From the IMG/VR virus record IMGVR_UViG_3300028603_000022, positions 32,001-96,000 of that record: a stretch of 64,000 nt of DNA, one strand, 5' to 3'. The notes under the pieces are model-generated. The model was given only the letters and a program-made list of their open reading frames with translations. It was not told the DNA's origin and did not search any database. Position 1 is the first letter of the stretch; every line of letters begins with the position of its first letter. The DNA comes from a virus. Lineage: Duplodnaviria; Caudoviricetes. Made by a program: the position numbers and the translations under genes. Shown here in pieces: positions 396 to 3,545 of the stretch.

Positions 396-929
396 ATGGA
401 ACATTTTGAACTGGTTTTTGAGACTGTCGAAGATATGAGCGAAGCTCGTAAGCCTGCTTCTGCTGCAGCTAAGACCCGCGCTAAGAAGGCGGCTACTGCG
501 AAGAAGAAGAAGCTAGCTAACGAAACTCCGGCTCAGTCCAAGAAGCGTCGCGCTGCTGCCGCTAAGAAGAAGCTCAAGACTGCCGCTGGGAAGAAGATTT
601 CCAAGGCTACTCGTAATAAGCCGAAGTCTGCTGCTCACAAGAAGAAGATTTCGACTGCGATGAAGAAGTATTGGGCTTCGAAGCGCGCTAAGCATCGTCG
701 TAAGACTGCGAAGAAGGCGACCGCGAAGAAGGCCCCGGCTAAGCGTGGACGTCCTGCTAAGAAGACTGCGGCGAAAAAGGCTCCTGCGAAGCGTGGTCGC
801 CCCGCAAAGAAGACCGCTGCTAAGAAGGCGCCGGCTAAGCGCGGTCGTCCGGCGAAGGCGAAGAAGCCTGCTGCGAAGAAGGCAGCTACTAAGAAGGCTG
901 CTCCTAAGCGTCGTCGTAAGTCTATGTAA
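396..929 (+). CDS. Histone H1/HMGA-like basic DNA-binding protein
   Basis: K/A/R/P-rich; three AKKAPAKRGRPAK repeats with AT-hook core RGRP; NUMOD3-like KSAAHKKKISTAMKKYW; acidic 17-aa leader; strongly biased codons (GCT/AAG/CGT). Confidence 0.85.
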   Translation: MEHFELVFETVEDMSEARKPASAAAKTRAKKAATAKKKKLANETPAQSKKRRAAAAKKKLKTAAGKKISKATRNKPKSAAHKKKISTAMKKYWASKRAKHRRKTAKKATAKKAPAKRGRPAKKTAAKKAPAKRGRPAKKTAAKKAPAKRGRPAKAKKPAAKKAATKKAAPKRRRKSM

Positions 930-938
930 TAACGGGTA

Positions 939-968
939 TTACAGTCTATCCTCCTCCCTAGACTGTAA
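939..968 (+). ncRNA. Cuckoo-like hairpin with CCUCCUCCC anti-SD loop (candidate 3'UTR-derived sRNA)
   Basis: Perfect 10-bp stem TTACAGTCTA/TAGACTGTAA around loop TCCTCCTCCC, directly followed by a terminator. Confidence 0.55.
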
Positions 969-972
969 CGTG

Positions 973-1014
973 AGGGCGGTGAATCCGAAAGGGTCCACCG
1001 CCCTTATTGTATTT
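973..1014 (+). terminator. Intrinsic terminator after the histone-like gene
   Basis: AGGGCGGTG/CACCGCCCT stem with GAAA-containing loop and T-rich tail. Confidence 0.75.
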
Positions 1015-2429: not shown

Positions 2430-3545
2430 ATGGAAATTAACAAAGGTAAGCAATATACAATCGGTACAAAGTTCTCCTATAAAGGAGCGCCGGCGGTGTT
2501 CAATCAACCGCCGCTATGGACTATATATACTGAAACAGACGATTCTCTGTTATCACAACCTGCTTTACAGGTAGGTAACAGATGGAATGCGGTATTCACC
2601 ATACCTACAAACTATATCGTACCAAACGGTAAAGAAGATTTAACCATACAATTTCATGGTACTGACAGCAAAGGACGTACCTACGTAGCGGATAAACTAT
2701 TAACTATTTTTGATAACACAGAGTTTTTTACACCTAATGGGGTGTTTTTTAACTACATAACTGATGAAAGTATAGAAGACTATTTAATAACCAATAGTGA
2801 TGAAGCAGATTTTGATATCCGAATATTTGATTCGTTTGGGGAACAGGTTCAGCATACCTCTCTAACTAATCAAACTGCGGTATCGGCTAACTCTAATGGT
2901 TATAAATATGATTTTAATCTACCACCTTTGGTAATAGATAAGAATGTCTGGCTAGACCCTTTTAATATTGTATATCGTATTACAACAGCTTCTGGAACAT
3001 ATACAGAAACTCATCCACTATTCATTCTAGACTTCAAAGTCATCAATGTAGTTAATGAACTACAAACTATGTTGGATAAATCCAAGCTAATAGAAGTCGA
3101 TCCTTCTCTACAATGGCATAATGTAGAGCTTATTCAAGCTGTTCTAGCAGGAGTAAAAAGGATTAATGCTTCTCCGCCGGAAGTTACTTTGTGGAAGCTT
3201 CACGATTTCCCTAGCGGACTAGACAGGTTTCTTACTATCGCCGCGGCTATTTATTCTCTTGAATCCAGATTCCTAGCAGAAGGTCTTAATGCTTTCGATT
3301 TCCAAGGATTAAACTCACAACTAAACTATAATAGAACTGAATATCTATCTCAATTGTTGGATAGGTATAACGCAGTTCTAGACCAATTACCGCTAGCTAA
3401 GAAATCCGCAATATTAACAAATGGTAAGGGTGAAATAGCTGGTAATGAAGTAGACAAAAGAGTACGTAATATCGGAACATTGGGTCTAGGTGTTAATACT
3501 CTTAATAACCGAATAGGGTATAATCGCTTTAGGCGGTTCTACTAA
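2430..3545 (+). CDS. Putative virion structural protein (head-tail connector-like)
   Basis: 371 aa; beta-rich N-terminus, helical C-terminus; lies in head gene region. Confidence 0.55.
   Translation: MEINKGKQYTIGTKFSYKGAPAVFNQPPLWTIYTETDDSLLSQPALQVGNRWNAVFTIPTNYIVPNGKEDLTIQFHGTDSKGRTYVADKLLTIFDNTEFFTPNGVFFNYITDESIEDYLITNSDEADFDIRIFDSFGEQVQHTSLTNQTAVSANSNGYKYDFNLPPLVIDKNVWLDPFNIVYRITTASGTYTETHPLFILDFKVINVVNELQTMLDKSKLIEVDPSLQWHNVELIQAVLAGVKRINASPPEVTLWKLHDFPSGLDRFLTIAAAIYSLESRFLAEGLNAFDFQGLNSQLNYNRTEYLSQLLDRYNAVLDQLPLAKKSAILTNGKGEIAGNEVDKRVRNIGTLGLGVNTLNNRIGYNRFRRFY

Follow-up and report, generated by a model that had tools for sequence, protein, structure and literature searches.

A Hairpin Displaying a CCUCCUCCC Loop in the 3'UTR of a Phage AT-Hook Gene, a Possible Young Anti-Shine–Dalgarno Element

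The stretch of DNA that was analyzed, here called the window, is 64,000 nucleotides long and corresponds to bases 32001–96000 of the 173,848-bp IMG/VR virus record of an uncultured phage. The record is 96% complete by CheckV, the phage genome (G000) has a G+C content of 38%, and a crude gene map places 210 called genes on it. The genome of the closest relative is referred to as G001. The features of the window on which the analysis centers are the following, with the basis of each assignment in parentheses.

309–316, + strand: CTAATTCT promoter-like motif with GTA 5 nt later, the likely transcription start region (recurrence in about 10 intergenic regions and conservation)
384–388, + strand: AGGAG, Shine–Dalgarno sequence 7 nt 5' of the ATG of the histone-like gene (read from the sequence; complementary to CUCCU in the loop)
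396–929, + strand: gene for a 177-residue Lys/Ala/Arg-rich AT-hook protein, histone H1/HMGA-like (open reading frame and Pfam AT_hook)
939–948, + strand: 5' arm of the hairpin, TTACAGTCTA (sequence, RNA fold and partition-function fold)
949–958, + strand: loop UCCUCCUCCC, or TCCTCCTCCC in DNA letters (unpaired in the partition-function fold)
950–958, + strand: loop core CCUCCUCCC (invariant in four haplotypes)
959–968, + strand: 3' arm of the hairpin, TAGACTGTAA (sequence and fold)
970–1007, + strand: terminator hairpin with a G+C-rich outer stem, an inner 4-bp stem and a GAAA apex (RNA fold; outer stems invariant)
1005–1016, + strand: interrupted U tract TTATTGTATTT(C), its first bases overlapping the base of the terminator stem (sequence and terminator scan)
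1040–1047, + strand: second CTAATTCT motif, presumed promoter of the next gene (conservation)

The CTAATTCT motif, often with GTA(G/A) 5 nt later, lies just upstream of genes in about 10 intergenic regions of the phage, and it is conserved 5' of the K/A-rich orthologue in each relative examined, among them Rhizobium phage RHph_N28_1, whose protein is 30% identical. This pattern suggests that CTAATTCT is likely the phage's own promoter element and is used clade-wide. The second copy, which is followed by the TTG start of the next gene at 1074, presumably shows where the histone-like transcription unit ends. The unit would thus appear to be monocistronic, consisting of promoter, a leader of ∼75 nt carrying the AGGAG sequence, the gene, the hairpin, and the terminator. 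The gene ends with a TAA at 927–929 and a second TAA at 930–932. The terminator hairpin begins one base after the motif hairpin, and the segment 970–1016 has the makeup of an intrinsic (Rho-independent) terminator, with a G+C-rich stem-loop followed by a U-rich tail, TTATTGTATTT; a terminator scan flags it only partly. The first-pass annotation had described a separate terminator hairpin downstream of the motif hairpin, which agrees with what is seen at these positions, and the same architecture is common to all relatives examined. No σ70-like or other internal promoter-like site was flagged in 800–940, and a separate small RNA from this region would therefore need to be made by processing.

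The AT-hook protein contains three AKRGRPAKK repeats and scores 22.1 bits against the Pfam AT_hook model (cut-off 17.4). A protein search with the histone-like protein itself gave no matches because the sequence is of low complexity; syntenic K/A-rich genes are present in all relatives examined. The N-terminus of the protein (window 396–446) is an acidic leader of ∼17 residues that ends in E-A and is followed by R-K, and this E-A-R-K is unchanged in every orthologue, over identities of 30% to 100%. It fits a prohead-protease cleavage site and, by extension, a DNA-binding protein that is packaged in the head. The 3' part of the gene is repetitive, and six independent metagenome assemblies (L012, L013, L015, L018, L139, and L140) break inside or just after it. 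Few of the relatives include the full AT-hook gene and its UTR, since the repeats evidently defeat short-read assembly.

Within the 3'UTR, positions 939–968 form 10 perfect base pairs with the whole motif inside the loop. These are the perfect 10-bp stem, the motif lying wholly in its loop, and the location in the 3'UTR of a histone-like gene that the first-pass annotation had reported, and all three hold; its placement of the stem 10 nt after the stop is off by no more than one base, as nine bases separate the first stop codon (gene end at 929) from the stem (start at 939). The folded segment 925–1020, which contains both hairpins, has a minimum free energy of −38.1 kcal/mol, compared with −22.4 ± 3.0 kcal/mol for shuffled sequences (z = −5.3), and none of 200 shuffles folds as well. 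When the whole predicted mRNA (325–1016) is folded with a partition function, each base of the loop is unpaired with a probability of ≥0.98, and the pairs of the hairpin stem form with probabilities of 0.90–0.98, the outermost pair being at 0.60. The hairpin is real, its loop is accessible, and, as described below, it is locally conserved.

The element is present once. Both strands of the genome were searched for loops that contain CCUCC and are closed by ≥6 bp, and the matches were compared with the crude gene map; on this basis the hairpin is the sole intergenic sense-strand one in the 173,848 bp that combines a stem of at least 8 bp with a CCUCC loop, and further copies of the hairpin element were found neither in G000 nor in G001. 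The 8-mer CCTCCTCC by itself is not over-represented in count, with 2 occurrences found and 1.3 expected. Two other readings of the loop were considered and rejected. On the minus strand the loop would read GGGAGGAGGA, a potential ribosome site or CsrA-type site; this was discarded because no start codon lies 4–13 nt downstream of GGGAGGAGGA, the neighboring genes are all on the plus strand, and the terminator has no minus-strand U tract. Antiterminator-type pairing of the loop with the 5' arm of the terminator was also set aside, as only ∼4 bp are possible by inspection.

No nucleotide match to this phage was found among cultured phages. Its head–tail connector-like protein (2430–3545) is ∼30% identical to those of Rhizobium phages and ∼23% identical to those of Erwinia and Dickeya jumbo phages. 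In IMG/VR there is one close relative, L002, with a connector 87% identical; its source is a municipal landfill leachate well in Southern Ontario (metagenome 3300015214; PMC10076291). Scans of IMG/VR with a pattern of the 3' arm and the terminator arm, and with connector-protein patterns, likewise returned L002 only. When the arm pattern was scanned metagenome-wide, the 80 loci listed, of at least 119 stretches, were chance matches in unrelated G+C-rich DNA. A search of 5.8 billion proteins, with look-ups of the contigs that it pointed to, yielded further relatives. One of these lineages, that of P0005, has 78% connector identity, and its contig L019 ends before the UTR is reached. The structure at the same place in each is given here by connector identity.

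Window and L141, 100%: 10-bp stem, loop UCCUCCUCCC
L012, L013, L015, and L139, 86%: loop as in the window, 8-bp stem
L018, 85%: loop CCCUCCUCCC, closing pair G-C, one U·G pair
L002, 87%: loop ACCUCCUCCUCCC, closing pair G-C, one U·G pair
L005 and L006, 64%: 8-bp stem, loop AAAC
L008 and L009, 60–61%: no hairpin 5' of the terminator
L010 (TARA), 45%: weak 5-bp stem, loop AAACAAC
L004 (Rhizobium phage RHph_N28_1), 30%: stem arms UCUGGU and ACCAGA around loop UUUCUU

All of these relatives retain the K/A-rich gene and the terminator. The motif loop is present at connector identities of ≥85% and absent at ≤64%, so that the refuting condition named at the outset, a loop not conserved in relatives, applies to the more distant ones and not to the nearest. 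In the 193-kb genome of RHph_N28_1 there is no CCTCCTCC anywhere, though the same gene and terminator are present. The motif is thus young and dispensable, because the loop is AAAC at 64%, the hairpin is missing at 60–61%, and the loop is UUUCUU in the Rhizobium phage. The relatives also bear on neighboring genes. An Acb1-family protein (PF23474, anti-CBASS type) is encoded in relatives and, immediately before the window, in the phage analyzed here, and a BubE-domain protein (PF20137) occurs in some relatives, lying in L005 and L006 between the AT-hook terminator and the next gene. The coordinates of the Acb1 and BubE matches are L005 1–430, L006 43–504, L010 186–659, and L141 964–1416, and also L005 4206–4556, L006 3489–3830, and L010 10309–10644.

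The motif-bearing sequences, with connectors 85–100% identical, fall into four haplotypes: the window and L141; L012, L013, L015, and L139; L018; and L002. In the alignment of these four, the loop core is invariant in 9/9 columns, as are the 5' and 3' sides of the terminator outer stem (9/9 each), and the promoter motif is invariant in 12/13. The hairpin stem arms are invariant in 7/8 and 6/8 columns, the terminator apex in 8/14, the last 30 nt of the coding sequence in 16/30, and the spacer after the terminator in 6/20. At the background invariance of ∼47% seen in the unconstrained neighboring segments, nine invariant sites in the loop core would arise by chance with a probability of ∼0.001, in a comparison that comprises ∼3 independent lineages, all at ≥85% protein identity. 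Among the closest relatives, the nine-base core therefore looks constrained. Substitutions in the hairpin stem preserve pairing, with the closing A-U pair replaced by G-C in two haplotypes (L018 and L002) and a U-A pair replaced by U·G. Covariation, the second check proposed at the outset, is in this way seen at one stem pair changed on both sides, and a formal test with n = 4 sequences is without power.

The main alternative is that the hairpin is purely structural, shielding what would be a very abundant late mRNA from 3' exonucleases together with the terminator or aiding termination, with the loop an incidental product of (CCT)n slippage. Hairpins with unrelated loops occupy the same place in L005 and L006 (AAAC), L004 (UUUCUU) and, weakly, L010 (AAACAAC), as this explanation would have it. 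The L002 loop differs from that of the window by one extra CCT unit, and a (CCT)n tract can change or grow by slippage while retaining the motif. The single copy of the element and the lack of a specific target in the phage, described below, also agree with it, and some chance CCUCCUCCC loops are expected across the ∼250,000 windows scanned. Against this, a loop of 10–13 nt brings no gain to a stabilizing hairpin, and L008 and L009 manage without such a hairpin. In addition, the loop core matches the terminator stems and the promoter motif in invariance, whereas roughly half of the sites in the apex and spacer vary; a structural-only hairpin is not expected to fix a 10–13 nt loop while the terminator apex drifts. 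The loop remains 10–13 nt and all-pyrimidine throughout the four haplotypes, whereas tetraloops are found in the terminator and in the L005 hairpin. Keeping a large all-pyrimidine loop fits display rather than stability. Taking both sides together, we consider a purely structural role somewhat doubtful, though it is a substantial contender.

The motif itself suggests a comparison with the cuckoo RNAs. This family is defined by 2–4 adjacent hairpins of 24–50 nt with CCUCCUCCC in each loop of 9–27 nt, and it is found in Rhizobiales and Rhodobacterales (PMC4615179). The CcsR RNAs, each with two motif loops, are released by RNase E from a DUF1127-gene 3'UTR, and a small basic protein whose gene lies upstream binds them (PMC8034643). 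NfeR1 carries three CCUCCUCCC motifs with redundant function, which pair with ∼8 nt in regions of translation initiation (PMC10746234); a single module is therefore mechanistically plausible. The phage hairpin shares with αr14/NfeR1 (Rfam RF02344) and CcsR1–4 (RSs0680a–d) an identical anti-Shine–Dalgarno motif in a hairpin loop, and its dimensions (hairpin of 30 nt; loop of 10 nt, or 13 nt in L002) lie within the published module limits. Like the CcsR RNAs, it sits in the 3'UTR of the mRNA of a small basic protein, upstream of the terminator (PMC8034643). The differences are equally clear. The phage has one module rather than 2–4, and its terminator loop (GAAA) lacks the motif; the element is single copy and absent from relatives ≤64% identical, including the Rhizobium phage; and, unlike at a CcsR-type locus (CIN1), the upstream gene encodes an AT-hook protein and not a CcaF1-like DUF1127 protein.

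The search with cuckoo, αr14, and CcsR covariance models that the first-pass annotation had called for gave no match at threshold in either the window or the genome, and no Rfam family reaches its gathering threshold in the window. Applied with the laxest filters to a 111-nt stretch containing the element, the αr14 model gives 16.5 bits (threshold 58.8), with the terminator, which lacks the motif, aligned to the second motif-bearing hairpin of the model; the CcsR model gives no match to the same stretch at E ≤ 10. Across the whole phage genome, neither the cuckoo models nor DUF1127 (PF06568) give a match at E ≤ 1. No other hairpin with a CCUCC loop was found in an intergenic region of the phage genome or of its closest relative. 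As a positive control, an IMG/VR pattern scan for two motifs 15–45 nt apart recovered >120 loci, at least 30 of which form two or three strong motif-bearing hairpins on contigs that are nearly all 53–64% G+C. The αr14 model scores 81 bits on the viral contigs L237 and L241, two of seven control loci tested, while the two-hairpin loci tested (L242, L251, L284, and L335) fall below the Rfam αr14 threshold. These six contigs, and others, are viral or prophage contigs that carry two or three CCUCCUCCC hairpins of 9–14 bp. Real cuckoo loci can thus be detected on viral or prophage contigs, and the phage element is not among them. By analogy, the phage hairpin resembles one cuckoo/NfeR1 module in form and possibly in action.

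The description of the hairpin as cuckoo-type is therefore not sustained where family membership is meant, given the single module, the αr14 score, and the lack of a CcsR match or a DUF1127 gene. A true member of the αr14/NfeR1/CcsR family, captured from or mimicking a host sRNA, would imply a host in the Rhizobiales or Rhodobacterales. The identical 9-nt motif, the fitting module geometry (PMC4615179), and the sub-threshold αr14 alignment could be read in favor of this, as could two hints on the host, namely that the nearest cultured relatives infect Rhizobium and that a transposase in the phage has its best relative in a MAG labeled Microvirga. These are outweighed by the lone motif hairpin with its GAAA-looped terminator neighbor, by an αr14 score far below that which the same model gives to L237 and L241, by the absence of a CcsR match and of a DUF1127 neighbor, by the lack of the motif in the Rhizobium phage relative, and by the G+C content of the phage, 38% compared with 53–64% for viral contigs with real multi-module loci. 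The Microvirga hint suffers from a match of only 64% identity on a contig of 48% G+C. We regard true cuckoo membership as largely refuted and very improbable.

The host deserves separate comment, as the motif had been taken to point to an alphaproteobacterium. This is unsupported by the 38% G+C content, by the landfill leachate source of the closest relative, and by the Rhizobium phage without the motif. The CCUCCUCCC loop carries no taxonomic information because it is complementary to any bacterial Shine–Dalgarno sequence, and RHph_N28_1, the one relative known to infect an alphaproteobacterium, has UUUCUU in the loop at the same place. The phage does contain a foreign insertion sequence ∼18 kb before the window, with a DDE transposase (PF01609, 109 bits; G000:C1:13849–14655) in a region of 52% G+C flanked by phage DNA of 37–40% G+C. 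The best relative of the transposase is 64% identical, in the MAG labeled Microvirga, on a contig with 48% G+C, a value atypical for Microvirga. Naming the host through the insertion sequence was dropped, as the 64% match and the 48% G+C contig are too weak for that purpose. An alphaproteobacterial host is possible, with the insertion sequence and the distant Rhizobium-phage kinship keeping the option, and it is far from indicated by the 38% G+C and the landfill source.

Similar seeds occur well beyond the cuckoo family. S. aureus RNAIII (UCCC loops), RsaE/RoxS, and actinobacterial 6C RNA use C-rich loops against G-rich Shine–Dalgarno regions (PMC4615179), and the phage hairpin has in common with them an unpaired C-rich hairpin loop that could serve as such a seed. 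These RNAs are independent host genes with several loops, whereas the phage element is a single loop in an mRNA tail and has no sequence or structure homology to them; 6C (Rfam RF01066) gives the top sub-threshold Rfam score, at 19.5 bits (threshold 47). In enterobacteria, 3'UTR-derived sRNAs of the processed type (type II), e.g., CpxQ and SroC, are known. A candidate RNA from the phage 3'UTR would, in the manner of that type, share the terminator of its parent mRNA (970–1016) and have its seed just upstream, where the core is invariant at 9/9 positions within the narrow clade. It would differ in that the phage seed is in a closed hairpin loop rather than in a single-stranded stretch, and in that the U tract is interrupted.

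We then consider what the loop might pair with. Sites with at least 7 nt of complementarity to the loop are few in the phage and almost never lie before a start codon, and no class of phage genes matches the loop over 7 nt or more at its ribosome site. For the 210 crudely called genes, the longest upstream match to the loop is 6 nt and most are 3–5 nt, on which basis a private ribosome-site tag complementary to the loop was rejected for this phage. Within its own mRNA, the loop CUCCU is predicted to pair with the AGGAG of the gene (384–388) at −7.3 kcal/mol, and the best internal complement of the loop is the purine-rich start of the leader (319–334), at −8.7 kcal/mol. In L002 the homologous leader site (2835–2850) is the best internal complement as well, at −11.1 kcal/mol. 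As modeled, none of these pairings is better than an ordinary Shine–Dalgarno interaction, and energies within that range are only suggestive. The loop-to-leader pairing in both phages could reflect an interaction between the 5' and 3' ends of the mRNA or could be a mere consequence of a purine-rich initial transcribed sequence.

On balance, we tentatively favor the reading that the hairpin is a young, lineage-specific pairing loop of the anti-Shine–Dalgarno type in the 3'UTR of a presumably abundant late mRNA, while recognizing that the case falls short of even confidence. The hairpin would be the first of two 3'UTR structures in a self-contained transcription unit, with its stem holding the all-pyrimidine loop open and its core, CCUCCUCCC, kept while non-structural neighbors drift. 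The loop would pair with a G-rich, GGAGG-like sequence and thereby lower ribosome access. This could occur in trans, through the abundant mRNA or through a 3' fragment of ∼75–80 nt that comprises hairpin and terminator and would be cut off in the AU-rich region of the stop codons. It could also occur in cis, within its own mRNA, where the loop would pair with the AGGAG site or with the purine-rich leader at the 5' end. Transcription, processing, the pairing partner, and the effect on translation are all inferred. A bolder version, which we think unlikely, is that a late and very abundant mRNA of a low-GC phage with a non-alphaproteobacterial host has converged independently on the cuckoo motif, and that its one-module anti-Shine–Dalgarno tail titrates strong GGAGG sites, shutting off host or early-phage translation, or loops its own mRNA through the 5' leader.

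An exposed and constrained loop would fit a protein partner as well as an RNA partner. The hairpin might be a binding site for a protein that recognizes C-rich single-stranded RNA displayed on a stem, either a host protein of the KH or cold-shock type or a phage protein, and might in this way control the stability or localization of the mRNA. The binding of the CcsR RNAs by the small basic protein encoded upstream of them (PMC8034643) offers a precedent. No candidate protein was identified, though, the genome has no DUF1127 gene, and the upstream AT-hook protein is by its Pfam assignment a binder of the DNA minor-groove type, leaving a protein site quite improbable.

If the loop does pair with ribosome-binding sites, as the favored reading of a young anti-Shine–Dalgarno loop would have it, the phage carries a minimal, single-hairpin version of the principle used by anti-Shine–Dalgarno sRNAs; with a hairpin of purely structural role, the finding would be an ordinary one. 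The practical lesson is that CCUCCUCCC in a phage hairpin identifies neither an alphaproteobacterial host nor a member of the cuckoo family. Were the pairing true, the CCUCCUCCC loop would be a convergent solution and not a taxonomic marker, and it would have arisen in this phage lineage within the last ∼15–35% of protein divergence, on the tail of the mRNA of a structural gene. It would then show with what ease a regulator can be born from a terminator-proximal hairpin.
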